Of a DNA stretch of 64,000 bases, positions 1-59,448 are shown one piece after another. The position numbers and the translations under genes are program-made. Location of the stretch: the IMG/VR virus record IMGVR_UViG_3300032180_000001, positions 96,001-160,000 of that record; one strand, 5' to 3'. The stretch comes from a virus. The stretch's first letter is position 1. Each line of letters starts with the position of its first letter. Below the pieces are notes generated by a model that saw nothing but the letters and a program-made list of their open reading frames with translations, was not told the DNA's origin and made no database searches.

Positions 1-3000
1 CAGCCCGCTGAGCCCGCTGATCGCCTCGTCCCAGAGATGGGCACCTTCATGACGCATCCCGTCGAAGATGACCGCGCCTTCCTGGATAGCCCTGTTCACG
101 AGGCCGTTGAGCCCGCTGATCGCGTCGTCCCAGAGATGTGCGCCCTCGTGCCGCGCTCCGTCGAAGACCACGGCCATCTCGTGCGGGAAAGAGTCACCGA
201 TCGCGTGCACGAACCGGTTATGGAACCCCTGGGCGATGATGCTCCAGAAACCGTCGAACAGCTTCAGCGTGTTGGACAGGAATCCCTTCAGGTCGCTGCC
301 CTTGCTCCCGACGAAGAAATCGTAGATCTTGTCGGCGACGTCGTGCTGGAATCCAGTGAAGACCCCAGCCCACGCCGTATGGAACACTCCGCCGATCGTT
401 TTGCTTGAACTGCCCAGGGCTCCGACGACCGAGTTCGGGTCACGCGGACCGCCCTGCCCGGAATCTGACGTCCGGTGACCGGTAAAGAACCCTGTCACGG
501 CATTGGCACCGCCAACAGAGATATTCGCCGCGCCCTGCCTAGTGAACAGCAGGTTGGCGATCGGCTGGAACCAGCCGGGGACCGTTTTGTTGTACGTTGC
601 CAAGTTAGACGCCTGCGTTGGCTTGCCCACCACAGCATTGCTGACGCGACCGAGCACCTGACCGATGATCGCGGCGATAAGTGCAGTCCCGCCCGCGCCC
701 CGCAGCAGCCCTTCCCCGCCCGCTCCTTCAGCTCCCCCGCCTGCCTTGCCGAACAAGCCCTTGAACCAGGTGCCAAACCGGGAGAAGAAGCCACCGGCCG
801 CCAGCTCGCCGCCCTGCACGACATCGGATGTGCCGCGGGCACCGGGGATGCCAGTGGGCGGGCCGAACTTGCCCCCAGTCGCTGCTCCGGCTGTTTCTTC
901 AGTCGCAACAGTCGCTCCGCCCGAAACCAGCGCTTCCCTGATCATAGCTGCGGCACTAGTGCCTCCTTCCTCGAACGCCGTTCTCATCAGGGCAGCTGCG
1001 TTTGAACCATCAACTTTCCCGCCGAGAAGACCACCGGTAAGCCTACCCAGAAGACTGCTACCGCTGAGAGCTTTGAAAAGGCTAGTAACACCAGTGAATT
1101 TCAGCAGTGCAATACCAGCAAGCGTGACCGCGATGCTCTCCAGAAATAGTTTGCCAGCCGTGTTCTTACTGATGTCCTTGACCCAGCCAGCGAAAAGGTT
1201 CAGCCCGTGCATAAGCGGAATGCCAACAACATCGATGATCTGCTTCAGGTTAAGCCGCAGGCTCTGGATCGTATCCGAAAAGCTGCTGGTGCCTGGTTTG
1301 GCGGCAGTCGTTGCCTTTCCCAGGTTCAGCGTGTAATTTGCCAGGTCATTAACGTACTTCGCGGCGTCCGGCCCGTAGATGCCTACTGATTTCAGGTCGG
1401 CGAGAAGCTGTACGCGATCCTTGCTGGCTGCGGCCTTATTGCCTTTTCCAAGGTCCGTAGTAAACTTAGCAAGAGCTGTCTGCACCTTACCGGTACTGCC
1501 AACGAGGGCCTGCTGCGCCGGAGTCAGGTCGGATTGCAAGGTATGCGCGAGCGCGGCGGCCTTGCCCGTCAGGTTGCTGTTGCCGATGGTGACCGCGTTC
1601 TGATTCCCCTGAAGTTTAGTCAGGCTGCCACCCATCTGGCTGATCCAGTTCGTCGCCTGCTGGAAGGTAGTTACGTACGGAGCGGCCCGTTGCACCCAGG
1701 AAACTACCTCAGCTTGCCAGGTCTTGTTGTTTCCGGCGGCCGTAACCATCGCCGCACCCGTATCAGCGATAGAACTCGTCAACTGTGGACCGGAGGCTCC
1801 TGCCTTCATGTTGGCGTCGACGAGAGAGTTAGCGTTGGTCAACAGCGACTGAAAATCAGTGTTCACTGTGTCGTAGGTGCTCGTGCCAGACGCAATGTCC
1901 GTGTTGAAAGTCTTCATGCTCTGGCCGAAGGTAGCCATCGACGTCTGGGTGCCAGTAACGATGCCGTACCAAGTGTCCCAGGCGCTCGTCAAGTTGTTAA
2001 TCGCTGTCACCTGGTCGTTGGCAGTTACCGACAGCACGTTCATGTCGCTGCCGACCATGCCCATCGTCTGGCCCATGTTCAGGTAACCGGTTACCAGGGA
2101 CGCGATCATTTGCATGGAGGTAGCCCACGCTTTGTTGTCCGCATTGGTGAAATCAGATACCTTGACTCCGGCTGTCTGTGCCAACTGCATTGCTGCGGGC
2201 AGACTGATTCCGTAGAGCTTCGAAATCTGAACAAGGCGCTCGGATTCAAGGGTGAAGTCCCCGAGGAGTTGCTGACGCGACTGGCCGAGCGTTCTCGCAT
2301 CAGCGCTGCCCGACGCTACTGCCTGCCGCCATGCGGCGGTAACATTCTTCAGCGAATTTTCTGTCGTGCTGAGCATAGTAATGGGTGTCGAATTAGCAAC
2401 GGCTGCAATTTGCGCGGATGCGTACTTCTGCATGGCATCCTGTGCCTTGACAGCCCAGACAACTACGGCAGCCAGTGCTGCTGCGATAAAGATGGCACCG
2501 CTTACCGCAGCCGGACCGAGTCCTTTCAGGACTTCACCAAATCTGGCGATCCGGCCACCCAGTGCTTCAAACATCGGTCCAACGACAGCCCAGCCTTTAG
2601 CCGCTGCGAGCCCGATGCCAAGACGTTCAACCAAATTCAAAAGGGCAGTAGCAGCAAGTCCGCTCCAGGCGTAGAGGGCATGCAGCCCGATTGCCCAGGC
2701 TGCCAGGGCGCCGCCAAACGGCGTATGGATAAAGTCAGCGACTACTCGAAACAGCTTGGTGACAGCGACGCCGATTCCTAGCATAATCTCAGCAATATGC
2801 GTTCGCTGGGTGATCCCGGCCAGAGCCCCCAGGAGCGCTCCAAGGTTAGCAAACGCTGTTGCCAGACCGGCGATGTCGCGCTGTCCCATCTTGATAAAGT
2901 TTGACAGGCCGGTACCAGAGCTGGCTTTATTCATGTCCACGGCAATGCGGGCGGCTGTCCTGTCTAGTGCCGTTCCGGTGTCCGTGATCAGCTTTTGCAT

Positions 3001-6000
3001 CACACCGCCACTCTTGCTGGCCATTGCGGTGAGCGCACTTCCGTATAGTTCGAATACCTGCGGGCGAACTTGATCCTGCAGCGCACTGAAAGAATTACCT
3101 AGTGAACTTACCTTTGTCGTAACGCCACCTGCTTGAGCGCCTAGCTTCTGAAGACTACCGCCTGCCGACACCACCATGAAATTCATCTGCGTGCCCATAG
3201 CCGTCGTCACAGTACCCAGATTTTTCACATATGTGGTAACCTGCGTAACCGCATCTTTGGCAGCAAGAGCAAATCCGCCGAGACCGAGCGCCAGCGTAGC
3301 CAGCGCCGGAATCCAGACGGCAAAAATTTCAACAGCCAGTTCCATGGCGATATGCCAGAGCTTGACGCTTTTCGCCGCACCATTAAATGCCTGAACCTGC
3401 TGCTGCATCCAGCCGAACCAGCCACCCGCACCCTTTGTGAGGAACGGGGTAATACCACCTCCGCCGGCTGCACCTGCCGCACCTGCTGCAGCGGCTGCAA
3501 GAACTCCACCCCCTCCACCGCCCTTGCCCCCGCCTGCACTCCCAGCCATAGTAGTGGCCATGACGGAACGCAATCTCCCGTACGCAGAGGCGAGATCTTT
3601 CACCCGGGCGATGTCTCCGGCGGTAGCCTTACTGAGGTCTATACTAGCTATATCTTTCAGTTCATCCTGAAGTCTTATCGCTTCGACAGCAATATCAGCT
3701 AGTACCCTCTTGGCGGAATCGCTGTCAACATGAGTTGCAAGGCTTATCAGGGTTTCCTTTATCTTCTTCGACTCAGCATCAAGCATAAATAGCTTATTCA
3801 TCGCCTCCGTAATGTCAATATTAGCGGCTGCGGTCTGCGGTGCAAGAAACTTCTGATATTCTTTAAGTGCAGCTTCCTGAAGTTTGCCGAGATCATTCCA
3901 GTCTTTCGTCATTTTCCGGGCTAGGTCATCCCAGGCTTTCCGCTGGTCCGCGTCAAACTTAAGATTATCCTTATTAGCGGACGCTTGCAGCTTACTGAGA
4001 TCATTCCAGTCTTTTGTCATTTTCCGGGCTAGGTCATCCCAGGTCTTCTGCTGATCCGCACCACCAGCAGCGCCACTCGCCGTATGCGCGGCTTTGACCC
4101 GCTTCAGTTCCTTTTCTGCCTGACTTAGCAGGGTTACCATCCGGATAACAGTGTCCGCCGCTGCCGCCTGGCTCATGAGGTCGACAGTCGACTGCTTCAT
4201 CTCATTCGATAGCTTGCTCTGCTCAATCCGGAGAATCATGGCCTGAGCAGCAGAATAACCGGCCTTCTCACCGAGATCAGACGTTGCAGCGTCAAGTTCC
4301 TTTAGTTTTGCTATCATATCAGCAGGAATAATAGTATTAAGCGGTTCGAATGCCTTTGCTGACTTTGCTGCCTGCGCTGCTGTTGCCGCCATAGTCGCGC
4401 CCAGTCCGCCGGTACTATCGGCTGCGGCATCTGCTGCCTTTTCCTGTACTTTTTCCGCAGCAGCAGCCAGGTACTCAGCCGCAGCCATCCCGCCTATCGC
4501 AGCGGTGGTGACAGTATATCCCTTATCAGCATAACCCCTAACGCCACCCTGACTTGACTCCCCGTATCCCTTGGCGTAAATAGCCCGGACGCGCTCAACC
4601 TCAGCAGCAGTCGTTTCAACTGTGTTCTTGAGCTTACCCCACTTACTAATTTGCAAGGTGATCGAAGTGTCCGCTGCTGCCGTTACCCGCTGATACTCCT
4701 GAAGGAAGCCTTTGCCCGTACCTACTTTCTCCGTCCAAGTGACTAGCTCCGCTGTTGCTTTCTCCATCGCCGGTGCCAGATTAACTTCCGGGGTGATCTT
4801 TGGCTTTTCCGTTGCGATTTTTTCGTCGAGCGCTGCTGCTTCCGCTAGTGCCGGTTTTTCATCAAGCTTCGGAGTAACAACCGGCGTATCAGCTTGATTG
4901 AAAGCAGCTTTCGCAGCCGTAGCAGCCTCTTTACTGCCATTCTCTATCGCCGTCCTGAACTCCCGGGTCGCGGCTTCCTTATTTACAGTTAGCGGCACCG
5001 CGACGGGCTTCATGACCTCCCCTACCCGGGCCTTAGCCGCCGTCATCATCATGTCCTGATACAGCTTATCGCGTGCTGCTTCCGACATCTTCGGCTCAAC
5101 AGGCACCTCGACTGGCTTACTGATCTTCGCGTCAAGCGCTGCCACCTCCGCCGTCGCCGGTCCCAGATCAACCTTCGGCTGAATGAATTCTTGCGACGAT
5201 ACTCGGTGCTTGTATTCCCCGCCGACAAACATGGCCTGCTGCCGCTGAAGATCTGTCAATGTCTGCTGGTTATGCTGCGGGACAAGGTTAACTTTCTGAT
5301 CCCGGTAAAGCTGGACTAGTGCTGCATCTAGATTCTTAACACCACTGAGCGCCGCCCGCAGATCCGTCAGGTTGATGTATCCTCCGGGCCTGTCCCCGCC
5401 TGCGGTTGCCATACTGCGGATCGTGGTCATAATCAGCTTGTCGAGCGCCATAACTTCCGTCATGGCCGGAGCCGTGTCCGCAGTAATCGACACCTCGGGC
5501 TTCTCTGCTTCTATAGCTTTGTCAAGCGCTGTGCATTCTGCCATGGCAGGAGCTGTGTTCAGTTCGGGGGTAACGACGGGCTTAGCTGCGGTAAGAGCAG
5601 CCTGAAATTTTTCCTGAACCTTGCGCATAAGAGCGGATGACTCGAAAGCTGCAAGGAACTCATTTATATCCGGAACAGCTTCGACAGGAACGGTTAGCTT
5701 AGTACTACTCCATTGTGCGCCAAGTGCCTGTGCGGCGGCAAGATTAGCATCCTCAACTTCTGTTCTATAGGTATCAAAAAATTTCTTCTGTGCCTTCGTC
5801 AGCGGAACCGTGATCGCCTCAGCAGTTGCGTCACCCGCACCCTTCATCGTTGTCCGGACCTTGTCGGCAAACCCGGTTAGCGCTGTCTCCGACTCTTCTA
5901 TGCTCGGCCCGAGATCAACCGGTATCTCAACAGGATTGGCCTTCACCTCCGCAACAGCCGCGGTAACAGCCGTTGCGACCTCCGGCATGACCTTCGACGT

Positions 6001-9000
6001 GTCCGCAGTGAACGGAACGCTTGCCGCCGCCGCCGCTGCCGCCTCTTGCGCGGCCTTCTTCAGCCTGGCTTTCATCACCATGTCGGCCTGCTTCTCCGAC
6101 AGCCCGGCCGCGATCAGCTCCGGTATCCCTCCCGCGACGGGCTTGTACTCTTCCCGCCCGACCGACATCTGCACGCTCTTCATAAAGTCGGCCATATTGG
6201 CTTTAACCGGGATTGTCCGGCTCTGAGTTATCCGCGCCATCTCCGCCTGGATCTCGGCTTCGCTGAACTTAGCCTTCATTTCGACTGGATGAGCTGCAAT
6301 CTCGGCATCCGCCACCGCGACTACCTTAGCTACCTCCGGGGTAATCACCGTTGTGTCTGTCTTGATTTGTTCCACAATCGGATTAGCCGCTGCCCAGGCG
6401 CTTGCTGCTTTTTTCGCTTTATCTAGATCATCATCCAGGTCTTCCAGGTAGTCAGCCGCAGGCCGAACAGATACCGTAGCAATAATCTTATAACCGGTTT
6501 TTGATGCATAGCTACCAGAACTTGGGTAGGCTGACGCATGAGGGGCATTATCTGCCGGATTTACGGGGGCGACCTGGTACGTATATCGACCAAGCAGGTT
6601 AGCCGCATTTGGTTTCTCATTAGCCCACGCCAGTCCGCTCCTACCGGGGTTAATGATATCTCCGACATCTAGCTTCGCATTAGTTGCGTGAAACAGGTCC
6701 TTTACCTCAGTGACGGCAGCAGTGGCCTCTGAGATAATTTTTTCTGTGTCAAGTTCTACCGGAATTTTAGTGTTCCTGTACTTAGCCTTTATGGCGGCTA
6801 GCTGCGCCTCAATCGGATCTTTATTTATATCTGGCGTGAACTCCATCTTCATCGACTTCATAATCTCGGCGACCGACTTGTCCGGCACCGGTACTGCGTT
6901 CTCCGGCTTATACAGGACCTGAGTAGCGCCCTTAAATACATCCTTCGAAGGGACGTCGAACGACCGGACAACGAAACCAAGCTCTTTCAGCTTAGGCAGC
7001 CATTCATCAAACCAGGTGTTCAACTGCTTCATGTCCTCGAATGCGCTGCGAGCACCTTCGCTGAAAAGCTTTATTGCCTTGTCTTCACTGACGATGTTTC
7101 CAAGAAGCGAGTCTTCCCAGACAGGAGGGTGCTCCCAATCTCGGGCGTTGTGCGTTGATGGTGCCGTCTCGGACACGCCAGGACTGCCCGCGTACGGCCC
7201 CCTGCCGGTCTCTGCATGCTCAACGCGGAAGATGCGAGTCATCTCCTGCTTTACTGCGGCTTCAGCAGCTTTGTCCATAACAGGCTCAACCGTAACCGGC
7301 AGGGCTTCAAGGTGAATATTCCGAACGCCCTCAATAATTTGATCTTTAAGTACCTTAAACGGCTGATTTCTCGGGAAGGTAAATTCATGTGCGTCGTCCG
7401 GGAGATCCCCCAGGGCTATACTCTGCCTATTCAGGGCCTTGACTCCCGGTCCTGCAGTAATTTTCATCAAGGTGGTGCCGAATGTTTTTGCTACATCCTC
7501 CGACACTGCGGCGCTAGTGTAGCCCTTATCCTGGATTATCTGACCGGTCTTACTCCCAACACTACCGAGAATCTCATCAGGCTTATTAACACCCCGAAAC
7601 AAAGTAACCTGCTGAGTAAAATCTGATACTTTATTAATCAGGGAGTCAATATCTGAGACAATACTAGCAACACCATTATCCTGAGTACTTCCAGCACCCC
7701 CGACTGATAGACCCCTTAGTTGATCCTGTATTGTCTTGAAAGACCACTCGTAATACCTTTTCATAGCAAACAGGTCGTCTTCAGTCGTGCTGCTAGGAGT
7801 CCCTTCGCTGGACTTAGCTAGTTTCATTCCTGACAAAGCCTGCTTCATCTCCCGGGAGGCATCCCTGAACTCCCCAGCAGACATCTGCACGCTTCGCATA
7901 AAGTCGGCCATTGACGATCCAGCGCTCGCGGTCGGGCCAGGCCCTGCAACCCCCGCTCCCGCAACCCCCGCTCCCTCAAGCCCAGAAGAATCAACCCGGA
8001 TCTTGACCGTCCGGTCCCGGGTGACGATCTTCAGCATCTCTTCGGCCACATCGATCGAACGGTCATCCAGGTCGGCCCGTATCCTCACCATGCGCTCGGC
8101 GGTCAGCGCGTCCAGTGCCGCCTGCGCCGCAGCCGAGTCCAGGACGACGTCGATCTCAAGGTCCTGTCCCGGCGGGAGTACGAGCTTTCCAACGTCAAAC
8201 GTCACCGGAATCTGGGTAGTAAGGCTGCGAAGCTCCGCCAGCTTCCGGTCCAGATCAGCCGTGTTGATATCGATGCTCAGGTAGTCGGACAGACCGGTTT
8301 GCGCGATCAGCTTCTTGATCAGCATGAGCTGGCTGCGGATCTTCGACTGAGGCACGTTAACATCAGCGAAGTCCGCCAGGCCAGACTGGGCTGCCAAAGT
8401 CTTCAGCTTCGCGAACGCCGCAGGAGCGCCCTCAACATTGACGCCGACATCAACCGTCCGGTCCGCCGTCAGGGCATTCAGCTCCGTTTTCGCCGCCGTC
8501 ACAGAACCAGGCTTCAGGTAAAACTCGACCGGAATATCCGCCACGACATCCTGAGTAACGGCGGCAACCTTAACCTGCAAGCCAATTGCGGTACCCAGAT
8601 TGAACTCAGCCGGAATATCCGCCTTAACGCCTTCGGTAACCGCATCAACCTGAGCCTGCAGTCCGCCCGAGCCACCGCGGACACCAAGATCGACAGGAAC
8701 GAGTGCGCTGGCGCCTTCCGCCATGGCATCAATCTTTACCTGAAACTCGGCCCGAGATGGCATGTTAAGGTCAACCGGTATCTTGGCTCCGATACCCGCA
8801 GTCAGCGTCTCAACCTGAGCCTTCATTCCTGTTTTAGTTCCAGTCAGGTCAACAGGTACCTTCGCCTTGATTCCTGCAGTCAGCGTCTCAACCTGAGTCT
8901 TTACGGCTGCCTTTGAAGGAAGCTTAAATTCGACTGGTATCTTTGCCTGAATCCCCGCGGTCAGCGTCTTAACCTGGCCTTGCAATTTAGTCTTAGTCCC

Positions 9001-9159
9001 AGTCAGCTCAATTGGAACCTTTACCTGCAAGTCATGATCAGTAAGAGCCAGCTTGTTAACTTCCCCCACCGCAGTTTTTACCTGCTTGGTAAGATCAGCA
9101 AAAAAACCGTCATCATTTGGTTTAATGTTAACGTAGGCCTCTCCCAAAAGACGGGCCAC
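1..9159 (-). CDS. Tape measure protein, >3053 aa, 3' end outside the window; contains an internal ADP-ribosyltransferase block
   Basis: GTG at 9159 opens MARLLGEAYVNIKPNDDGFFADL..., next to the stop of the neck gene. The same frame is still open at position 1 (...IQEGAVIFDGMRHEGAHLWDEAISGLSGL). The ORF track reports no stop-bounded ORF from this start, consistent with an open 3' end. Ala/Gly-rich amphipathic repeats and position after the tail chaperones fit a TMP. Confidence 0.92.
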   Translation of the reverse strand, partial: MARLLGEAYVNIKPNDDGFFADLTKQVKTAVGEVNKLALTDHDLQVKVPIELTGTKTKLQGQVKTLTAGIQAKIPVEFKLPSKAAVKTQVETLTAGIKAKVPVDLTGTKTGMKAQVETLTAGIGAKIPVDLNMPSRAEFQVKIDAMAEGASALVPVDLGVRGGSGGLQAQVDAVTEGVKADIPAEFNLGTAIGLQVKVAAVTQDVVADIPVEFYLKPGSVTAAKTELNALTADRTVDVGVNVEGAPAAFAKLKTLAAQSGLADFADVNVPQSKIRSQLMLIKKLIAQTGLSDYLSIDINTADLDRKLAELRSLTTQIPVTFDVGKLVLPPGQDLEIDVVLDSAAAQAALDALTAERMVRIRADLDDRSIDVAEEMLKIVTRDRTVKIRVDSSGLEGAGVAGAGVAGPGPTASAGSSMADFMRSVQMSAGEFRDASREMKQALSGMKLAKSSEGTPSSTTEDDLFAMKRYYEWSFKTIQDQLRGLSVGGAGSTQDNGVASIVSDIDSLINKVSDFTQQVTLFRGVNKPDEILGSVGSKTGQIIQDKGYTSAAVSEDVAKTFGTTLMKITAGPGVKALNRQSIALGDLPDDAHEFTFPRNQPFKVLKDQIIEGVRNIHLEALPVTVEPVMDKAAEAAVKQEMTRIFRVEHAETGRGPYAGSPGVSETAPSTHNARDWEHPPVWEDSLLGNIVSEDKAIKLFSEGARSAFEDMKQLNTWFDEWLPKLKELGFVVRSFDVPSKDVFKGATQVLYKPENAVPVPDKSVAEIMKSMKMEFTPDINKDPIEAQLAAIKAKYRNTKIPVELDTEKIISEATAAVTEVKDLFHATNAKLDVGDIINPGRSGLAWANEKPNAANLLGRYTYQVAPVNPADNAPHASAYPSSGSYASKTGYKIIATVSVRPAADYLEDLDDDLDKAKKAASAWAAANPIVEQIKTDTTVITPEVAKVVAVADAEIAAHPVEMKAKFSEAEIQAEMARITQSRTIPVKANMADFMKSVQMSVGREEYKPVAGGIPELIAAGLSEKQADMVMKARLKKAAQEAAAAAAASVPFTADTSKVMPEVATAVTAAVAEVKANPVEIPVDLGPSIEESETALTGFADKVRTTMKGAGDATAEAITVPLTKAQKKFFDTYRTEVEDANLAAAQALGAQWSSTKLTVPVEAVPDINEFLAAFESSALMRKVQEKFQAALTAAKPVVTPELNTAPAMAECTALDKAIEAEKPEVSITADTAPAMTEVMALDKLIMTTIRSMATAGGDRPGGYINLTDLRAALSGVKNLDAALVQLYRDQKVNLVPQHNQQTLTDLQRQQAMFVGGEYKHRVSSQEFIQPKVDLGPATAEVAALDAKISKPVEVPVEPKMSEAARDKLYQDMMMTAAKARVGEVMKPVAVPLTVNKEAATREFRTAIENGSKEAATAAKAAFNQADTPVVTPKLDEKPALAEAAALDEKIATEKPKITPEVNLAPAMEKATAELVTWTEKVGTGKGFLQEYQRVTAAADTSITLQISKWGKLKNTVETTAAEVERVRAIYAKGYGESSQGGVRGYADKGYTVTTAAIGGMAAAEYLAAAAEKVQEKAADAAADSTGGLGATMAATAAQAAKSAKAFEPLNTIIPADMIAKLKELDAATSDLGEKAGYSAAQAMILRIEQSKLSNEMKQSTVDLMSQAAAADTVIRMVTLLSQAEKELKRVKAAHTASGAAGGADQQKTWDDLARKMTKDWNDLSKLQASANKDNLKFDADQRKAWDDLARKMTKDWNDLGKLQEAALKEYQKFLAPQTAAANIDITEAMNKLFMLDAESKKIKETLISLATHVDSDSAKRVLADIAVEAIRLQDELKDIASIDLSKATAGDIARVKDLASAYGRLRSVMATTMAGSAGGGKGGGGGGVLAAAAAGAAGAAGGGGITPFLTKGAGGWFGWMQQQVQAFNGAAKSVKLWHIAMELAVEIFAVWIPALATLALGLGGFALAAKDAVTQVTTYVKNLGTVTTAMGTQMNFMVVSAGGSLQKLGAQAGGVTTKVSSLGNSFSALQDQVRPQVFELYGSALTAMASKSGGVMQKLITDTGTALDRTAARIAVDMNKASSGTGLSNFIKMGQRDIAGLATAFANLGALLGALAGITQRTHIAEIMLGIGVAVTKLFRVVADFIHTPFGGALAAWAIGLHALYAWSGLAATALLNLVERLGIGLAAAKGWAVVGPMFEALGGRIARFGEVLKGLGPAAVSGAIFIAAALAAVVVWAVKAQDAMQKYASAQIAAVANSTPITMLSTTENSLKNVTAAWRQAVASGSADARTLGQSRQQLLGDFTLESERLVQISKLYGISLPAAMQLAQTAGVKVSDFTNADNKAWATSMQMIASLVTGYLNMGQTMGMVGSDMNVLSVTANDQVTAINNLTSAWDTWYGIVTGTQTSMATFGQSMKTFNTDIASGTSTYDTVNTDFQSLLTNANSLVDANMKAGASGPQLTSSIADTGAAMVTAAGNNKTWQAEVVSWVQRAAPYVTTFQQATNWISQMGGSLTKLQGNQNAVTIGNSNLTGKAAALAHTLQSDLTPAQQALVGSTGKVQTALAKFTTDLGKGNKAAASKDRVQLLADLKSVGIYGPDAAKYVNDLANYTLNLGKATTAAKPGTSSFSDTIQSLRLNLKQIIDVVGIPLMHGLNLFAGWVKDISKNTAGKLFLESIAVTLAGIALLKFTGVTSLFKALSGSSLLGRLTGGLLGGKVDGSNAAALMRTAFEEGGTSAAAMIREALVSGGATVATEETAGAATGGKFGPPTGIPGARGTSDVVQGGELAAGGFFSRFGTWFKGLFGKAGGGAEGAGGEGLLRGAGGTALIAAIIGQVLGRVSNAVVGKPTQASNLATYNKTVPGWFQPIANLLFTRQGAANISVGGANAVTGFFTGHRTSDSGQGGPRDPNSVVGALGSSSKTIGGVFHTAWAGVFTGFQHDVADKIYDFFVGSKGSDLKGFLSNTLKLFDGFWSIIAQGFHNRFVHAIGDSFPHEMAVVFDGARHEGAHLWDDAISGLNGLVNRAIQEGAVIFDGMRHEGAHLWDEAISGLSGL
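3890..4045 (-). repeat. 108-bp-period tandem repeat within the TMP (WDDLARKMTKDWNDL x2)
   Basis: gagatcattccagtcttt(c/t)gtcattttccgggctaggtcatcccagg occurs near 3890 and 3998. Confidence 0.85.
6472..6696 (-). other. Arr-like (H-type) ADP-ribosyltransferase domain inside the TMP
   Basis: Hand translation: LFHATNAKLDVGDIINPGRSGLAWANEKPNAANLLGRYTYQVAPVN...SYASKTGYKIIATV. This follows the rifampin-ART Arr pattern FxHGTxAxLxxGDxL...YxVxP...SY. Confidence 0.65.
6901..7236 (-). other. Phage 'YRVE..GPY..HP..WF..GF..G..QV' globular domain inside the TMP (possible ART-like fold)
   Basis: Hand translation: RIFRVEHAETGRGPYAG...EHPPVWEDSLL...SAFEDMKQLNTWFDEWLPKLKELGFVVRSFDVPSKDVFKGATQVLY. The pattern resembles small free-standing phage proteins; the fold assignment is inference. 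Confidence 0.5.
7310..7790 (-). other. VIP2/C3/Alt-like (R-S-E clade) ADP-ribosyltransferase domain inside the TMP
   Basis: Hand translation: ...MKRYYEWSFKTIQDQLRG...SDIDSLI...TLFRG (R at 7594-7596)...IIQDKGYTSAA (S-T at 7513-7518)...AKTFG..LMKI..GPGVKAL...AHEFTFPRNQPFKV (E at 7384-7386). Confidence 0.85.
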
Positions 9160-9160
9160 A

Positions 9161-9556
9161 TCACACCGTCCCTTCTAGATCGAACAAGCCGGTGGTAAGG
9201 AACGGATAAGAGTTAGCCTCGGAACCTGGGCCGCCCGGCCCGTGCATCTGGATAGCAGGATGTTCCAGGAACACGGTGGGATTCGTCGGTGCTGCCGCGC
9301 TGCCGTAAATATGGCCGGTGTCATCCCAGCCGACGTACGGGTGCGTGAGTTCCTTGGTAAATCCCGGAGGCCTAGCGTTACTGCCCCGTCCAGTCCGGGC
9401 CGAAGCAGGCGTCCCTGGGCGAACATGCACCACAGCGATCGCGACTGCCGCAGCCCGGTCCGCGAGATCGAGCATCAAAGGTGCGACGAGACCCGTAGGA
9501 GAATTCAACATCTCAAATACCGCCTCTTCTGAGATATGAACGTCATCCACGTCCAA
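9161..9556 (-). CDS. Putative neck/tail-completion (HK97 gp10-like) protein
   Basis: 131 aa with a strong RBS (aaggagg). Lies between the tail chaperones and the TMP. Confidence 0.5.
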   Translation of the reverse strand: MDVDDVHISEEAVFEMLNSPTGLVAPLMLDLADRAAAVAIAVVHVRPGTPASARTGRGSNARPPGFTKELTHPYVGWDDTGHIYGSAAAPTNPTVFLEHPAIQMHGPGGPGSEANSYPFLTTGLFDLEGTV

Positions 9557-9565
9557 GCGCCTCCT

Positions 9566-9950
9566 TTACATCCCCATAAAAGACCCGGGGATCTCCTCGT
9601 CCTTGCCTTCTGCTTCCCAGGGCACAAGATTGCCGTCGGCTCCCTTGCGGAACCCACTGACAGGGGCGTCCGGGTTCTCGACCACCATTCCCGCTGCCTC
9701 CTGGAAGGCTTTCAGTGCCTTCAGCGCCTCCTTCTCCGGATCGACGCGCTGGCCGATCGTTTCCTCGAACGCTTCCAGCTGGTCGGCGTCCATGCCGTCC
9801 GTGCAGATCGCGTACACCATGTTGAGCAGCTGGCGCGGGGTTAGCGCCTCGATGCCTTTTTCCGTGTGCCGGAGCCGTTCCCCGTCGAGACGCGCTGAGT
9901 GGTGGGCGGCGTAACTGAGGAGCCATCGCGCGGCTTGGTAGGGCGCCCGG
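9566..9950 (-). CDS. Tail assembly chaperone, frameshifted C-terminal extension (G-T type)
   Basis: The -1 frame is open from about 9950 (APYQAARWLLSYAAHHSARLDGERLRHTEKGIEALTPRQLLNMVYAI...) to 9566 and overlaps the 3' end of the upstream chaperone ORF. Confidence 0.7.
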
Positions 9951-10785: not shown

Positions 10786-11534
10786 TTACGTACCGGAGAT
10801 GCCCGTGGTGGGATAGCGCATTATCGCGCTTGCTGCGCTGAACGTGCTCTTCATGGAGACCGCTGCCGCAACGCCGCCGGCGACGGCGTAGTCGGGAAGG
10901 ATCTTGCCGAAGAAGTACTGGCCTGGCCCGGCTCCCTGCACGCCGACCGTGGACGGGTAGAGGTAAAAGTTCCGGGGCTGGCCGTCGGTCGCCGCGACGT
11001 AGGTCTGCGCAGTGGCAGTGTCGTAGAAGCCGGTAAAGTCACCGGATGCGTCCGGCAGGCCGGCCACCCAGATCAAGTTAGAGTCTCCCATGGTGGTGAC
11101 GTCTACCTTGGCGACGGTGAAGTTGAGGCTCCAGTCTGACAGAAACGCCATCGGGCTTGCTGAGTCGGTCGGGTTTACGCCAATGTAAGCGATCGTTCTG
11201 TTACCTCTCGTCCTTTTTACAGGGCGAGCGGGCTGGTCATTTCTGCCAGCCTCTGCATGTCTCCATGCAGTCCGGACTATACCTTCACCCACAAGGGGTG
11301 CCACGTACCTAGTCTCTGAACCATCCCGTCGAGACCTTTCAGTTCAGGCGGGCTCGGCTGCTGATTACCCCTGCTAATCTCTTTTTGAACCATCGCGCTC
11401 GCGTTTTCACGCCACGCTGTGGTGCGATCAGGTGACTCGGGCGTCCCAGCAATTCTCGCAGTTTGCACTGAGTGATTGCTCTCTCAGGCGGCCAGTCGAC
11501 CGTTGCGTCCATGAATTCTCGAGATGGTACTCAT
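10786..11534 (-). CDS. Major tail protein, spliced: exon 1 11534-11499 + exon 2 11193-10786 (147 aa)
   Basis: RBS AAGGAG then ATG gives MSTISRIHGRNG, which joins in frame to IAYIGVNPTDSASPMAFLSDWSLNFTVAKVDVT... once the intron is removed. Confidence 0.88.
11194..11498 (-). ncRNA. Group I self-splicing intron, 305 nt, no internal homing ORF
   Basis: P AAUUGCUGGGA (11444-11454), Q AAUCAGCAGC (11357-11366), R GUUCAGAGACUA (11310-11321), S AAGGUAUAGUCC (11274-11285). The 5' exon ends in U, which can pair in P1 (CGGU/GCCG). The intron ends in G. Splicing restores the reading frame. Confidence 0.92.
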
Positions 11535-11825: not shown

Positions 11826-12941
11826 ATGAAAGAGAAAATCTGCATCGATTGTGGCAGAACTTACACACACGGCGGACGGGGGCTGTGCCCGAACGACTAC
11901 GCAAAAAGGAAGCGCTACGGAACACTTCCGCCCCTGAAAACAAGAGGCCCCGACGCTCAGTGCAAAGCTCCCGAAGGATGCACGAACATGGTAGGGCGCT
12001 CCGGCGCCAGAGGGCTGTGCCCTAAGCACTACCAGCGACTTGTCAAGTCAGCTGGAGGGCTGGAGCAACCGGTGCGAACGGCTCCACTAGCGGCGAGGTT
12101 TCGCGCGAAAATAAGTACCGAGCCATGCCCGTGCGGTTGCGATTGCGAACTGTGGACGGGAGGGATTCAGCCTAAAACCGGGTACGGTAATTTCTCGATC
12201 AAGAACAAGACTTATCTAGCACATCGCGTCGCGTGGGAGCTGGAGAAAGGCGAGATACCGGACGATTTCGATATCGATCACGTCCAGGAGCGCGGCTGCC
12301 GTCATAGGCATTGTGTTAAGATTACGCACCTGGAACCTGTTCCGACGGTGCTGAACAATCGGCGTATACCAATGACGGAGCAGCGAAGAGACGGACTTTC
12401 GGAAGCAGGAAAGAGGGGATCTGCCATCCGCTGGGCAAGAGTCCGGGCCGGTGAGGCTGAAGTCGATCAGGCAATCTGCTCCCGGGTTCTCGCTTTCGTT
12501 CTTGCCCATCCCGATGGTAGTCGTGCGCGGCAGATAGCAGAGGCGCTGGATATGTCTATCCACAACGCAAGGCAAGGTCTTACCCGTCTCGCTAAACGCA
12601 AGATGATTCTCGGTAATGGTTCCGGGCTTTACCAGCCGCTACCTGCTGAAGAATGCTGGCGTCCTGTGCGAGGCTATGCCGCGTTTTATGAAATCTCTGA
12701 CCGGGGGAACGTCTCTGCCCTGGCCCGGCCGCGAACGCACGGCGGACTGCTGATTCCCCAGCTCAACTCCGCAGGCTTCCGGGTTGTTCGGCTGTCTAAG
12801 TACGGTCAAGTGACAACATGGACTGTAGGACGACTCGTGCTCGAAACGTTCTGCTGGCCACCTCCGCATCCGAAGGCGAGAGCGAAGCATGGCCTAAACG
12901 GTAAGCTAGATGACGCACTGTCAAATCTTCACTGGAGTTAA
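11826..12941 (+). CDS. HNH homing-type endonuclease fusion (Zn motifs, HNH, HTH, truncated NUMOD4-HNH)
   Basis: LAHRVAWEL...DIDHV...HLEPVPTVLNNR; then ECWRPVRGYAAFYEISDRG...HGLNGKLDDALSNLHW. Confidence 0.85.
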   Translation: MKEKICIDCGRTYTHGGRGLCPNDYAKRKRYGTLPPLKTRGPDAQCKAPEGCTNMVGRSGARGLCPKHYQRLVKSAGGLEQPVRTAPLAARFRAKISTEPCPCGCDCELWTGGIQPKTGYGNFSIKNKTYLAHRVAWELEKGEIPDDFDIDHVQERGCRHRHCVKITHLEPVPTVLNNRRIPMTEQRRDGLSEAGKRGSAIRWARVRAGEAEVDQAICSRVLAFVLAHPDGSRARQIAEALDMSIHNARQGLTRLAKRKMILGNGSGLYQPLPAEECWRPVRGYAAFYEISDRGNVSALARPRTHGGLLIPQLNSAGFRVVRLSKYGQVTTWTVGRLVLETFCWPPPHPKARAKHGLNGKLDDALSNLHWS

Positions 12942-38864: not shown

Positions 38865-41234
38865 CTACTGGAAATAGGTAATCACGAGCGCGTACCCGGC
38901 GGCGCCCTGAGCGCCCGCACCTGAAGACGTGCCGCCTGAGCATGCTCCTCCGCCTCCGCCACCGCCGCCAGTGTTCGCCTGAGGAGATGCCCCCGCCTGT
39001 GCCGCTCCGGTGATCGCCGCCGCCCCGCCACCGCCACCAGGCCCAGTTCCGCCTTGAAAGGCCGGAGCCGTACCGCTAGTCGGAGATGCCCCGCCGACAA
39101 TACCGCCAGCAGAAGTATTGGCACTTGATCCCAGGAATGTATAATAACCGACTCCGCCATTGGCAGCCGTCGGCCCGGAAGCGATCACCCCGCCACCTCC
39201 GCCGCCGCCGCTTGTCGCACCTTGGACTGCGGCATCACTGGTTCCGCCGGTTCCTGTCGTTCCGGTACCACCCGCTCCACCGGTTGTCAGCCCGGATCCG
39301 CCTCCACCGCCGGCTGCCGTTCCCGACGCACCCGGCCCAGCCGCGCCTGCTGCTCCACCGTGCGCCCACAGATAAGAACCGAAAAACGTTCCTGATCCGG
39401 CAACGCCTGGGTTACCCGCGCCAGCCCCCGTAACGGCCGCTCCGCCCGCTCCCCCGGTGCCGAGGGTGACCGCGACCGTGCCGGATAGCTGTGACGCCTG
39501 AAACATGGCCGTCGAATAGCCGCCTCCTCCGCCGCCACTACCGCCGACTGCGGCTCCGCTTGCCTCGAATGCCCCGGATCCGCCGCCACCGCCGTCCGCG
39601 ACGAGGGCGACATAAACAGTCTGCGCTCCAGCTGGCTTCGTCCATGTTGCCGTGGAGGTATAAAAATTGACTTGCGGAGTGACAATTGAAGATCCGGGGG
39701 TGTCTAGATTAGTCCACGAGCCACCCGAACCGGTACCGGTAAAAATAGATTCGAGGTCTCCGGAAGCGACAGCGGTATAAACCCCGGTAGCAGGAGCGTA
39801 GTTAGCGTAGTTCCGGACCGAAATGCTCACCGGGCTGGCGCCGGCTGGAACGATGCAGGTAGCTTTCGGGCCATTCAGCGTCACCAGGTCCAGGTTGACT
39901 CTGCACGGCCGTGTGCTCGCCGATCCGCTGATCGATATAATCGGAGCCTGATAAGCACCTGAGGAATACATCAGAGCTGATATACTATTAAAACTCCACT
40001 GACCGCCGATGACAGTAATAAGCGGATTACCAGCCTGCGGATAAACAGTTGTAAAGGCAATATCCTCAAATGATACCGGAGTCGGACTGAAACTATTGGT
40101 ACCAAGGATAAATTGTGAACTGTTCTGCGACTGAATATTTTTAATTGTCGTCTGACCAGCACTATTATCAGTGAAATAAAAATCACACCAGTTCTGCGCT
40201 GGCTGGGCTCCGAGCAGAGCGAAACTAGAGCAATTTATCTTGTATCCGTAGTAGCACAGGTTAGCATCAACTCCGAGACCCCGGTGATCATAGTTGTTCC
40301 CGTTGCCGCCGCAGCCGAAGGCAAAAGCCACCAACCAGTTCCCGGTGCTGCTCCAGGATCCACCTGCCTGTCCTCCGGTTACGATAACATTTTCTAGCGT
40401 CGTGCCGTCGACCTGTCGGGCACCGTTTCCTTCTAGCGAGAGCCCAGTAATGAATTTAAGAGTACGAATACGAATATCCCGGAAGCAGTTTCCCGAAGTC
40501 GACCGAGCTGCGACATTAGCCGATACAACAGCGACCGTTACGGTAACGGTTCCGGTGGCCGTGCAGTTCTGCGACAGCGTCCACCCGACACCGGAAGTGG
40601 AGGTGAGAACAGTCGTCCCGCCGGGGATGCCGGTACCCGTTACCGTCGCGCCGACGTCGTAGGCCTGAGCCAGAGTGTTAGTTACGACCGCCGACCCGGA
40701 AATAGTTCCGCAGCCCGCGTCGGTCCGGCTGGCCGTCACCCAGTCGAGCCGGATGCCGTCAATGACCTGCTCGGTTCCGTCACCCGTGACCTCGAAGCCC
40801 TCGAACACCCCGTCCGCAGATCCGTTAACGAACAGCACCGCCTGGGTGAACCCGGTTCCGGACGCGCGGATGTTGGTCATCGCCGGGCCGTCGCCGATCA
40901 GCTTGAAGTTCTGCACCGACTGGATAATCAGGTCCGACGTTACTTTGTACGTACCGCGTGGGAGGTAGACCGGTGCGAGCGCTCCCCGGGTATGTGTGGC
41001 TGGAGCAGCATTGCCGGTGGCGGCGTTAATGGCCGCCTGAATCGCAGCGGTGTCATCGGTGGTGCCGTTGCCGGTCGCCCCGTACTGCGGGTCCTGCACG
41101 TTGATGACACCGCTGACACCGTTGACGCTGGCCAGGGATCCGTCAGCCTTGTGCGCGACCCGCAGCCAGGTATTGAGCTGCGTGCCCCATGAGTTCTGGC
41201 TAGCGCCCTGGCTGGGAAGGCTCGGCGTTGTCAT
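38865..41234 (-). CDS. Pectin-lyase-fold tailspike-like protein with C-terminal glycine-rich domain
   Basis: INVQDPQYGATGNGTTDDTAAIQAAINAA...VYLPRGTYKVT; WTKPAGAQTVYVALVADGGGGG. Confidence 0.82.
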   Translation of the reverse strand: MTTPSLPSQGASQNSWGTQLNTWLRVAHKADGSLASVNGVSGVINVQDPQYGATGNGTTDDTAAIQAAINAATGNAAPATHTRGALAPVYLPRGTYKVTSDLIIQSVQNFKLIGDGPAMTNIRASGTGFTQAVLFVNGSADGVFEGFEVTGDGTEQVIDGIRLDWVTASRTDAGCGTISGSAVVTNTLAQAYDVGATVTGTGIPGGTTVLTSTSGVGWTLSQNCTATGTVTVTVAVVSANVAARSTSGNCFRDIRIRTLKFITGLSLEGNGARQVDGTTLENVIVTGGQAGGSWSSTGNWLVAFAFGCGGNGNNYDHRGLGVDANLCYYGYKINCSSFALLGAQPAQNWCDFYFTDNSAGQTTIKNIQSQNSSQFILGTNSFSPTPVSFEDIAFTTVYPQAGNPLITVIGGQWSFNSISALMYSSGAYQAPIISISGSASTRPCRVNLDLVTLNGPKATCIVPAGASPVSISVRNYANYAPATGVYTAVASGDLESIFTGTGSGGSWTNLDTPGSSIVTPQVNFYTSTATWTKPAGAQTVYVALVADGGGGGSGAFEASGAAVGGSGGGGGGYSTAMFQASQLSGTVAVTLGTGGAGGAAVTGAGAGNPGVAGSGTFFGSYLWAHGGAAGAAGPGASGTAAGGGGGSGLTTGGAGGTGTTGTGGTSDAAVQGATSGGGGGGGVIASGPTAANGGVGYYTFLGSSANTSAGGIVGGASPTSGTAPAFQGGTGPGGGGGAAAITGAAQAGASPQANTGGGGGGGGACSGGTSSGAGAQGAAGYALVITYFQ

Positions 41235-43323: not shown

Positions 43324-44397
43324 CTACGTCAGACCCCGTACCTGCGGAAAGAGGTTCTGATACGCATCGCGCCATCGGGTCCAGTTTTTCTCGATCGTCC
43401 AGCTTCGAGCATCATCGCGGGCAGCCTCACCCAGCTTCAGGCGAAGGTTTTCGTCAGAAGCCAAAATGCTGAGATACTTGAGCCACTCATGTTCATAGCG
43501 AACGAGGAATCCGTTCTCACCATGCCGGATAAAACCACTGTAAACCGGACAGTCAGTAGCGATCGACGGAATGCCGCGAGCTGCCGCCTCCAAAACCTTA
43601 ATATTGCTCTTAGACAGATCGAATTCGGTAACGGCGAGCGGTGCGAGATTGATGTCGAAGTCAAGCGTCGCGTAATAGCCTTCAGGGTCCTCGTACACCG
43701 GAACCCAGGGGCGGAACTTTGCCCGGTTCCCGACCTTGAAGGTTGGCCGGTAGTCAGTACCGCCGAGATGGAAATCCCAGCCTGAAAATCGCTTCAGGAA
43801 CCTGCGGACTGAACTGGTGATCAGGCTGACATCGATACCGTGACTGGCGCCTCCCTGCCAGCCGATGGACGGGCGCGACCTGACTCGGGGCGTTTCCGCT
43901 GAGCCTGTAACCTGACTGGGCGGTACCGTATCCAGCAGCCAAGCGGGGATGCAATTTGGCAGCACGGCGATGTTCTCGTTCCCGGTATGCTCATGGATAA
44001 CCCGAGCCAGCTGATCGGTGGTCACGGTAACCAGGTCGGAAACTTCGGCCATGTGCGTCACAGCATCCTGGACATCTCCCCGCTGGTAGAGGCTGTAAGC
44101 CTGGAAGTTGATCGGCGAGATGCTGAACACGTCGTCGTCGGTCTCATAGACGAGCCGTGATTGCGGGGTCCGAGCGCGACGCCAGGTTTCCAGCCCACGG
44201 TGCGTATTAAAACGCTGTCCGATGATGATGTCAAAGCCCTGCATGTCCCGGAGCGTGACCGGCGTCCTGTTGCCCTTGTCGTCGCTGGCCGACCGGAAGG
44301 TTACCTCATGACCGTGCTTTTCGAGCTGACGCAAAGGCAATTCAATCCGGTACCAGCAACATCCGCTTCCACCGTCATGACCTGCGAAGATCCTCAC
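43324..44397 (-). CDS. GT-B (GT4-like) glycosyltransferase
   Basis: GCCWYRIELPL...VYETDDDVF...SIGWQGGASH...KSNIKVLEAAARGIPSIATD. Confidence 0.85.
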   Translation of the reverse strand: MRIFAGHDGGSGCCWYRIELPLRQLEKHGHEVTFRSASDDKGNRTPVTLRDMQGFDIIIGQRFNTHRGLETWRRARTPQSRLVYETDDDVFSISPINFQAYSLYQRGDVQDAVTHMAEVSDLVTVTTDQLARVIHEHTGNENIAVLPNCIPAWLLDTVPPSQVTGSAETPRVRSRPSIGWQGGASHGIDVSLITSSVRRFLKRFSGWDFHLGGTDYRPTFKVGNRAKFRPWVPVYEDPEGYYATLDFDINLAPLAVTEFDLSKSNIKVLEAAARGIPSIATDCPVYSGFIRHGENGFLVRYEHEWLKYLSILASDENLRLKLGEAARDDARSWTIEKNWTRWRDAYQNLFPQVRGLT

Positions 44398-58755: not shown

Positions 58756-59448
58756 ATGACCAGTGGACGTAACCCTGACTACATCCCGGGCAAGACCTGC
58801 GAGAACTGCGGGAAGCCTATTCCGTGGCGTCCCGGGATAGAGGTGCGAGCGAGAGCCCGCTGGTGCAGCAAAGACTGCTTCCAAACCGCTGGACGCGATG
58901 CTGCACCTAAGCCGTGTGAAAACTGCGGCAAGCCAATCCCGTGGCGGGAAGGCCGCGCAGCCCGTACTAAGGCTCGCTTCTGCTGCGACGCCTGTAAATT
59001 CGCTTGGCAGAAGCTCCACCCGCCGAATCCACGACAACCTCGGGAAACGAAGCCATGCGACACATGCGGCAAGCCTGTCGAGTACCTTCCATCCCAGAAG
59101 CTGGCAAGTAAGTACCCGAACGGAAACATCTACTGCTCCCGAGAATGCTTCGGTATCGGGCATTCTAAAACCATGACGGGACGCCGTCCCAGCGGAGGCA
59201 TCTATACCTCGCCCAGCACCTTCCGACTGATGATCCGACGCGAATTCTTCGACCGCTGCGCCATCTGCGGCTGGGACACAACCCCGTGCGACGTCGCGCA
59301 CATCATCGATCGGAAAGACGGCGGACCCGACTCGCTGGAGAACGTTGTGATGCTGTGCCCGAACCACCACCGGGCCTTCGACATGAAGTTGATCCCCGTC
59401 GAGACAATCCGGCTGGCACGAGAAACGATCCTGCGTAATCATCAGTGA
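58756..59448 (+). CDS. HNH endonuclease with CxxC..CS Zn-finger repeats; probably leaderless
   Basis: CAICGW...DVAHII...GGPDSLENVVMLCPNHHRAFD; TGtTATACT 6 nt before the ATG. Confidence 0.88.
   Translation: MTSGRNPDYIPGKTCENCGKPIPWRPGIEVRARARWCSKDCFQTAGRDAAPKPCENCGKPIPWREGRAARTKARFCCDACKFAWQKLHPPNPRQPRETKPCDTCGKPVEYLPSQKLASKYPNGNIYCSRECFGIGHSKTMTGRRPSGGIYTSPSTFRLMIRREFFDRCAICGWDTTPCDVAHIIDRKDGGPDSLENVVMLCPNHHRAFDMKLIPVETIRLARETILRNHQ

Follow-up and report, generated by a model that had tools for sequence, protein, structure and literature searches.

Three ADP-ribosyltransferase-type domains in tandem within the predicted tape measure protein of an uncultured soil phage

The carrier gene

The window analysed here is the whole stretch of 64,000 nucleotides (nt) that covers bases 96001-160000 of the IMG/VR virus record IMGVR_UViG_3300032180_000001, a phage genome of 184,980 bp that is 99% complete according to CheckV. 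The phage is uncultured and is known from a single soil metagenome. One open frame on the minus strand runs from window position 9159 down past the window edge and reaches genome position 89629 outside it; the first 3,053 codons of this tape-measure-type gene lie in the window (1..9159), and in the whole genome the frame encodes 5,176 amino acids. Residues 417-999 of the encoded protein hold three ADP-ribosyltransferase (ART)-type domains in tandem, here called D1, D2 and D3: a VIP2/C3/Alt-type domain, a domain of the phage T4 Y00F family and a minimal Arr-like domain, respectively. A first-pass annotation, made from the letters of the window, had placed three such domains and a bracketing direct repeat in this part of the gene, and its positions for all of them were confirmed.

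The gene is part of a tail module. Upstream, the order is a major tail gene, then three small open reading frames (ORFs) of 255, 127 and 131 amino acids, and then the tape-measure-type gene. The ORF at 10786-11304 on the minus strand matches the major-tail phrogs phrog_10528/9522, and portal and capsid genes are found further along the same strand. The C-terminal half of the 5,176-amino-acid protein matches the tape measure family phrog_4197 (E 4.4e-9) and carries a LysM match of 24.8 bits, and residues ~1940-2240 are Gly-rich and strongly hydrophobic, with hydrophobic segments at 1941-1963 and 2214-2240. The earlier naming of the gene as a tape measure is supported by this position in the tail module together with phrog_4197, LysM and the Gly-rich and hydrophobic core, and on position and content we accept the product as the tape measure protein (TMP) of the phage.

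There is also a slight chance, in our view, that the gene encodes some other giant protein of the virion or of ejection, such as a polyvalent protein (Iyer et al. 2017), which happens to lie in the tail module and does not determine tail length. No Pfam TMP model matches the 5,176-amino-acid protein in a Pfam scan, and the single TMP phrog is a weak one (E 4e-9), but the place of the gene after a major tail gene and small ORFs, its Gly-rich and hydrophobic core and its C-terminal LysM and lytic-looking parts all point to a tape measure. No chaperone pair made by programmed frameshifting was found either: when a G/GT frameshift was sought upstream of the gene no obvious slippery site was seen, the two overlapping small ORFs there (9543-9926 and 9161-9556) gave no family match for a chaperone pair, and the second of them has its own Shine-Dalgarno sequence (AGGAGG) and start codon. 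At ~1.5 Å per residue an implausibly long tail would result if all 5,176 residues measured length. On the other side, the large ORFs of the genome include no other TMP candidate, and the paper describing polyvalent proteins makes no mention of tape measures (PMC5512222).

The VIP2/C3/Alt-type domain

D1 occupies 7303..7794 on the minus strand (residues 456-619) and matches PF03496 (ADPrib_exo_Tox), whose cut-off is 23.4 bits, with 35.9 bits when the domain is scored by itself and 27.3 bits in the context of the full protein. The match spans profile positions 14-191 of 196, and a six-frame search of the genome with the same model gave 33 bits at D1. In the ESM-Atlas, the language-model neighbours of D1 are PF03496 clusters (score 0.97). 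The domain is very divergent: no BLAST match was significant, a PDB sequence search with D1 gave nothing significant, and a tblastn search of 50,697 phage records matched it only to the ART end of MW202455, a MuF-ART "minor capsid" fusion.

Alignment to this fusion and to ExoS shows that the core triad of Arg, first Ser and catalytic Glu is retained in D1, as Arg522 (7594-7596), Ser549 (7513-7515) and Glu592 (7384-7386), all on the minus strand and checked on the sequence. In the alignments, L-F-R522-G of D1 corresponds to LYRG in the MuF-ART fusion and to FRG in ExoS. GY-T-S549-A-A is paired with GF-M-S-T-S and GY-L-S-T-S; D1 retains the first Ser but has Ala in place of both the Thr and the second Ser, and A-H-E592-F stands opposite E-Q-E-V of the fusion, with Ala and not Glu or Gln in the first position of the motif and a preceding loop that is 5 residues longer. 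The proposal that D1 is a VIP2/C3/Alt-type ART is borne out by a PF03496 score above the Pfam cut-off, and LFRG, GYTS and AHEF are present within 7790-7310, as had been claimed; the catalytic Glu lies at 7384-7386, where it had been placed, and the alignments also display the A-H-E that had been read in place of ExE/QxE. From these sequence comparisons we hold with high confidence that D1 is a true member of the ART family.

The Arr-like domain

D3 occupies 6436..6714 on the minus strand (residues 816-908), with a small-family match at 6469-6705. A HMMER search with D3 of 1.84 billion representatives yielded two sequences, the protein itself in a version with a later start and a homologue of 86 amino acids. 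Seeding with this homologue added four, giving five stand-alone homologues of 82-98 amino acids. A His, a Trp and an Asp are invariant in all six family members, and in D3 these are His824 (6688-6690), Trp845 (6625-6627) and Asp870 (6550-6552), on the minus strand and checked on the sequence.

The structural model of D3 has a mean predicted local distance difference test value (pLDDT) of 84. Its three best Foldseek matches are Arr structures (E 6e-4 to 1e-3, probability 1.00, TM score 0.62), with the rest at E >=0.7. VIA gave Z 9.6 (root mean square deviation, rmsd, 2.8 over 90 of 93 residues), 9.1 and 8.8 to Arr-2/Arr, followed by TreX/TreTu at 8.0 and Tpt1/KptA at 7-7.9, and the other rows are also ART folds. 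The earlier description of this domain as Arr-like agrees with both methods, its interval of 6696-6472 fits the family match, and the His is found at 6688-6690 as predicted. On the strength of the model it is very probable that D3 has an ART fold.

In the model D3 is Arr-like in fold and not a member of the Arr family, because the Arr hidden Markov models (HMMs) score far below their cut-offs and match the N-terminal His motif only. D3 reaches 15 bits against PF12120 (Arr-ms; cut-off 25, profile positions 1-20 only) and 12.4 bits against NF033144 (rifampin_ARR; cut-off 130). D3 and Arr (PDB 2HW2, 9IAF, 9IBA; PF12120), its best structural match, are both minimal ART cores, and they share the N-terminal motif (aromatic-H-x-[ST] ... 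GD-hh-x-P/T-G) from which the weak HMM matches arise, but the core of D3 has ~85 residues compared to ~140 in Arr, which makes D3 about 50 residues shorter. Of the His-Tyr-Asp site, His824 and Asp870 are invariant whereas the invariant residue of the second strand is Trp845, not Tyr. Nothing in the D3 data suggests rifamycin binding. PF18760 (ART-PolyVal) has no match in the genome at E<=10, and two of the stand-alone D3 homologues match it weakly (best E 0.0065). PDB sequence searches with D3 and with the D3 profile gave nothing significant, and an NCBIfam search gave nothing usable.

The 86-amino-acid stand-alone homologue is encoded between two small GNAT acetyltransferase-like genes on a Logan contig (L008:7273-8554) that comes from a phage and also has terminase, ribonucleotide reductase small subunit, HNH and M23 genes. 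By analogy, an Arr-like gene accompanied by GNAT genes resembles the types of genes that modify small-molecule antibiotics.

The T4 Y00F-family domain

D2 occupies 6892..7242 on the minus strand (residues ~640-756) and coincides with a phrog_1106/PF26820 (Phage_T4_Y00F) match, for phrog_1106 with E 6.8e-26, in agreement with the interval of 7236-6901 that had been assigned to the middle domain. All of the family-invariant residues (R, G, Y, H, D, F, W, G, Q) are kept, including Arg645, Tyr656, His677, Asp683, Phe707, Trp716 and Gln747. A word-based homologue search with D2 alone returned nothing. Matches appeared once phage homologues were added to the query: the profile made from D2 and three of them recovers 76 proteins, all of which carry PF26820. 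D2 is 28-34% identical to stand-alone small PF26820 proteins, and its ESM-Atlas neighbours are PF26820 clusters. The members of the family that were found are small and stand-alone (63-263 amino acids, which is the range searched), and the three members inspected have small hypothetical genes as neighbours and are not part of the structural module, in contrast to D2, which is embedded in a structural protein. No function is assigned to T4 Y00F itself, whose expression in E. coli was tried without success (PMC8076793).

The AlphaFold model of D2 was built on 42 sequences and has a pLDDT of 81. Against BFVD it gave 31 matches at E<1e-3, all to uncharacterised phage or viral proteins; against the PDB, Foldseek found no significant match (E >=0.67), and neither did a PDB sequence search. 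In an exhaustive structure comparison with 48,161 PDB representatives, at least 40 of the 50 best matches were ART-superfamily proteins. The matches include ParT, MbcT, RES toxins, TreTu/TreX, DarT, PARP domains, Arr, Tne2 and AcrIF11, as well as the pertussis, cholera, diphtheria, CARDS and Scabin toxins. A second structural look gave the same picture, in that all 19 rows with Z>=2 were ART-superfamily proteins; the best Z was 4.5 (rmsd 3.8, 86 aligned). The claim that the middle domain is ART-like receives weak support: nearly all of the proteins matched are ART folds, but none of the matches exceeds Z 4.5. No ART-like fold for the PF26820 family is mentioned in the literature searched.

The residues of D2 were mapped from the order of secondary structure elements in the model, not by superposition. 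In this order Arg645 lies on strand 1, Gly/Phe707 lie where R-S-E enzymes have S-T-S, and the invariant Gln747 begins the strand on which the catalytic Glu is normally found, and no Glu is conserved there. The model suggests that D2 derives from the ART superfamily and is probably a much-modified ART core, an assignment that we make with fair but lesser confidence than those of D1 and D3. Since Gln747 and not Glu occupies the likely catalytic position, the chemistry of D2 may differ from classical transfer.

Catalytic residues and selection

The departures from known catalytic sets raise the alternative that the three domains are dead relics or binding modules, that is, spacers, plugs or parts of the TMP that bind NAD, ADP-ribose or a target, which we regard as distinctly unlikely. 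The S-A-A and A-x-E of D1, the Trp for Tyr of D3 and the Gln for Glu of D2 are what such a history could leave behind, but D1 keeps the Arg, the first Ser and the catalytic Glu, which are the most important residues in R-S-E enzymes. The unusual residues of D2 and D3 are invariant across their families, stand-alone phage proteins included, which argues for purifying selection on a working site and not for decay. It is true that D2 belongs to a family without known activity, as exemplified by the unassigned T4 Y00F (PMC8076793); a spacer, however, needs no three different conserved enzyme folds.

Domain architecture and the direct repeat

The N-terminal part of the TMP is built of ~27-residue units, in each of which a short helix comes after a (I/V)PV(D/E)(L/F) strand motif, and the DNA has a corresponding period of 81 nt. 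Such (I/V)PV units are seen in window 8515-8982 on the minus strand and scattered through TMP residues 48-1160. Linkers of this (I/V)PV-plus-helix type precede each of D1, D2 and D3 and fill the N-terminal ~1,200 residues. BLASTP among the three domains and hhalign of the D2 family against the D3 family showed no mutual similarity, and the possibility that they are duplicates of one another was excluded on this ground. With no mutual similarity and with a linker before each domain, D1, D2 and D3 look as if they had been acquired separately, like beads on a repetitive string. Whole-genome searches found no second copy of PF03496, of the D2 family or of the D3 family outside the TMP, and family searches found neither Macro nor ADP-ribosylglycohydrolase families in the genome.

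The domain block is bracketed by an in-frame direct repeat of 39 nt. The upstream copy lies at 7873..7911 on the minus strand (MADFMRSVQMSAG, residues 417-429) and the downstream copy at 6157..6195 on the same strand (MADFMKSVQMSVG, residues 989-1001). They are identical in 33 of 39 nt (85%), similarity ends sharply on both sides, and their starts are 1,716 nt apart, which is exactly 572 codons. A repeat of 32 nt with 29/32 identity had been reported for this site; it is real, and its true extent is the 39 nt given here. By our own estimate, the chance of a match this good in 9.3 kb is ~1e-7. The same codon is used in 10 of the 11 repeat positions that encode the same residue, a pattern that speaks for a recent event (duplication, gene conversion or a recombination joint) and against a peptide motif of long standing. 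The D2/D3 boundary bears another, weaker copy of the junction motif (64% identity), which the first-pass annotation did not include, at 6835..6873 on the minus strand (VAEIMKSMKMEF, from residue 763).

The block had also been described as lower in GC than its surroundings. The GC content at third codon positions (GC3) is indeed low in D1 (0.45) and D3 (0.46), but D2 (0.645) is at the average of the gene (0.644), and the dip is patchy, not uniform. The standard deviation of 90-codon GC3 windows is 0.12, and the lowest window of the gene falls in D1. Cassette insertion at the repeat-bracketed site is plausible in light of the 39-nt repeat with its near-identical codons and of the low GC3 of D1 and D3. 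No close relative of the block or of the TMP flanks was found in INPHARED phages, IMG/VR contigs or JGI metagenome contigs and, no related TMP having been found, the cassette site could not be compared across relatives.

The junction motif bears on a further explanation, namely that the domains are active but not delivered by the TMP. The N-terminal ~1,700 residues could be a polyprotein-like extension that is cleaved off, perhaps at the MADFM-type motifs, or they could act late in the producing cell, or remain with the tail or envelope, where they would work outside the cytoplasm. All three occurrences of the motif (residues 417, 763 and 989) coincide exactly with module borders, as those of a processing site might, and the TMPs of other phages undergo proteolytic processing; no protease recognising the motif has been identified in the present case, however. 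Folded globular domains suit a tail tube poorly, and the block is N-terminal to the membrane-active and lytic parts of the protein. Late ART activity could on the other hand be supplied by an ordinary gene, and fusion to a structural protein of 5,176 amino acids would be an odd route to it. Stand-alone homologues of D2 and D3 do exist as small phage genes, and the fusion therefore suggests a purpose, most simply co-packaging. Weighing these points, we consider non-delivery unlikely, though not so unlikely that it should be neglected.

Other parts of the TMP differ in composition as well. Further patches with GC3 <0.45 are found at residues ~1100-1180, 1530-1570 and 1750-1770 (window ~5620-5860, 4450-4570 and 3850-3910), and stretches such as residues ~1250-1340 appear globular by eye; together these may be more inserted modules, and none of them has a Pfam match at E<=1. 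The protein also contains two tandem in-frame repeats, one with a 99-nt unit and a peptide around GMRHEGAHLWDEAISGL, present in at least 5 copies (window 2-174 on the minus strand and continuing upstream in the genome), and one with a 108-nt unit around KTWDDLARKMTKDWNDL (window 3847-4059, minus strand).

Neighbouring features and host

A group I intron interrupts the major tail gene. It lies at 11253-11508 on the minus strand, just upstream of the ORF at 10786-11304, and matches RF00028 over the full model length with 52.5 bits against a gathering threshold of 50 (E 1e-11). On the opposite strand, a homing-endonuclease-type gene with HNH_3 and NUMOD4 (11826-12941, plus strand) adjoins the intron-bearing tail gene. 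The long stretch between head and tail genes includes a gene for a pectate-lyase-like and glycine-rich-domain protein (38865-41234, minus strand) and a group-1 glycosyltransferase gene (43324-44397, minus strand). The portal gene (59442-61934, minus strand) encodes 830 amino acids, of which the first ~235 residues only comprise the Phage_portal domain and the remaining ~600 are without a Pfam match. The capsid is ~32% identical to Streptomyces phage capsids, and the nearest tblastn matches of D2 among phage records are in Streptomyces, Arthrobacter and Pseudomonas phages; the host is likely an actinobacterium.

Discussion

The explanation that we favour, if only by leaning somewhat to its side, is that the TMP of a siphovirus-type phage carries pre-made NAD-using effectors of three ART lineages. 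In the mechanism that we propose, the TMP would exit the tail tube before the DNA with its C-terminal end, and with it the wall-binding and lytic parts, leading. The hydrophobic middle (residues ~1940-2240) would enter the membrane, and the N-terminal part, coming directly before the DNA, would get to the cytoplasm. There D1-D3, folded or refolded, would spend host NAD+ on host targets ahead of phage gene expression. Candidate targets would be the transcription and translation machinery, defence proteins and possibly nucleic acid or a small molecule. We infer the cytoplasmic entry of the N-terminal TMP, the activity of the domains and their targets. That at least one of D1-D3 acts as a delivered effector is, in our judgement, about evenly balanced, and the three alternatives discussed above, taken together, fall a little short of an even chance.

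Separate steps of this scheme have precedents. T4 Alt and the MuF-VIP2 fusions are virion-borne ARTs (PMC5512222, PMC7302621), and polyvalent proteins carry from 1 to 12 ART domains (PMC5512222). The lambda TMP was labelled during injection by TurboID fused to the inner-membrane protein ManZ (PMC13190303), and in contractile injection systems the functional domains of TMP-related effectors can be exchanged (PMC13277306).

Several points weigh against delivery of active effectors. The catalytic sets deviate in all three domains, with S-A-A for S-T-S and A-x-E for E/Q-x-E in D1, Trp for the Arr-type Tyr in D3 and a Gln without conserved Glu in D2. For D2, moreover, Z does not exceed 4.5, which is below the tool's typical best of 7-8 for models without a clear match. 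A tail-tube lumen of ~4 nm should leave little room for three folded globular domains of ~20 kDa. D1-D3 sit near the head-proximal N-terminus of the TMP, and we know of no study that shows this part of a TMP entering the cytoplasm. In a survey of viral NAD/ADP-ribose systems, virion ARTs are tied mainly to myovirus heads (PMC9503650). Finally, the phage is known from one soil metagenome only, and delivery and activity are predictions.

Enzymatic modules in a TMP are not without parallel. The TMPs of mycobacteriophages with Rpf-like and peptidase motifs, and T5 pb2, have embedded wall-lytic motifs. These likewise are enzymatic modules of a TMP that are used at entry, but they act on peptidoglycan outside the membrane, whereas ART domains need cytoplasmic NAD+ and targets. 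The Sle1-type TMP-related effectors of actinobacterial contractile injection systems similarly combine a tape-measure-like scaffold with an exchangeable domain and are ejected from a tail-like tube (PMC13277306). A bacterium produces the phage-tail-like particle in which those effectors are the cargo, and they have a single C-terminal domain, whereas the present protein is a phage TMP with three internal domains.

Among virion-borne ARTs, those of T4 Alt and the MuF-VIP2 fusions resemble D1 in belonging to PF03496, in being fused to a virion protein and in that they would act at infection (PMC5512222, PMC7302621). Their carrier is a head protein (MuF, portal or capsid-targeted Alt) and here it is the tail tape measure, and they have S-T-S and E-x-E where D1 has S-A-A and A-x-E. 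Polyvalent proteins likewise hold several effector-type domains in one polypeptide encoded by a late or structural gene and are predicted to be injected with the DNA (Iyer et al. 2017, PMC5512222). No modifying domain is commoner in them than the ART, which can be present in up to 12 copies, but these ARTs are of one clade (H-Y-D, ART-PolyVal/Tox-ART-HYD2), in contrast to the three lineages found here, the Alt/VIP2-type included.

No ART in a TMP is reported in the literature searched, and the virion ARTs described there are head-packaged. The words "tape measure" occur neither in the survey of polyvalent proteins (PMC5512222) nor in that of viral NAD/ADP-ribose systems (2022, PMC9503650). Virion-delivered ARTs are already known, but that literature describes neither the tape measure as their carrier nor three different ART lineages in tandem.

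One may speculate further that the N-terminal third of the TMP is a conveyor of exchangeable effector cassettes, swapped in frame between phages at the 39-nt MADFM-type junction and threaded in just ahead of the DNA, so that three NAD-using enzymes would be present at time zero. D2 would then represent an unrecognised and widespread ART clade, namely the T4 Y00F family, in which Arg, His and Gln would form the site, and the substrate of D3 might be something other than protein, for example nucleic acid or a small molecule made by the host. In this full form the proposal is unlikely, and we put it forward as a speculation.

If D1-D3 are delivered, the TMP would be an effector-injection device besides being a ruler and a channel, and the passage of globular enzymes inside or through the tail tube would pose a physical puzzle. 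Delivery would also offer the first functional handle on PF26820, which is found in T4 and in many phages of diverse hosts (RaK2, 201phi2-1), and the assignment of PF26820 to the ART superfamily is a possible by-product. D1-D3 are also obvious places to look for new ADP-ribosylation targets or anti-defence activities.

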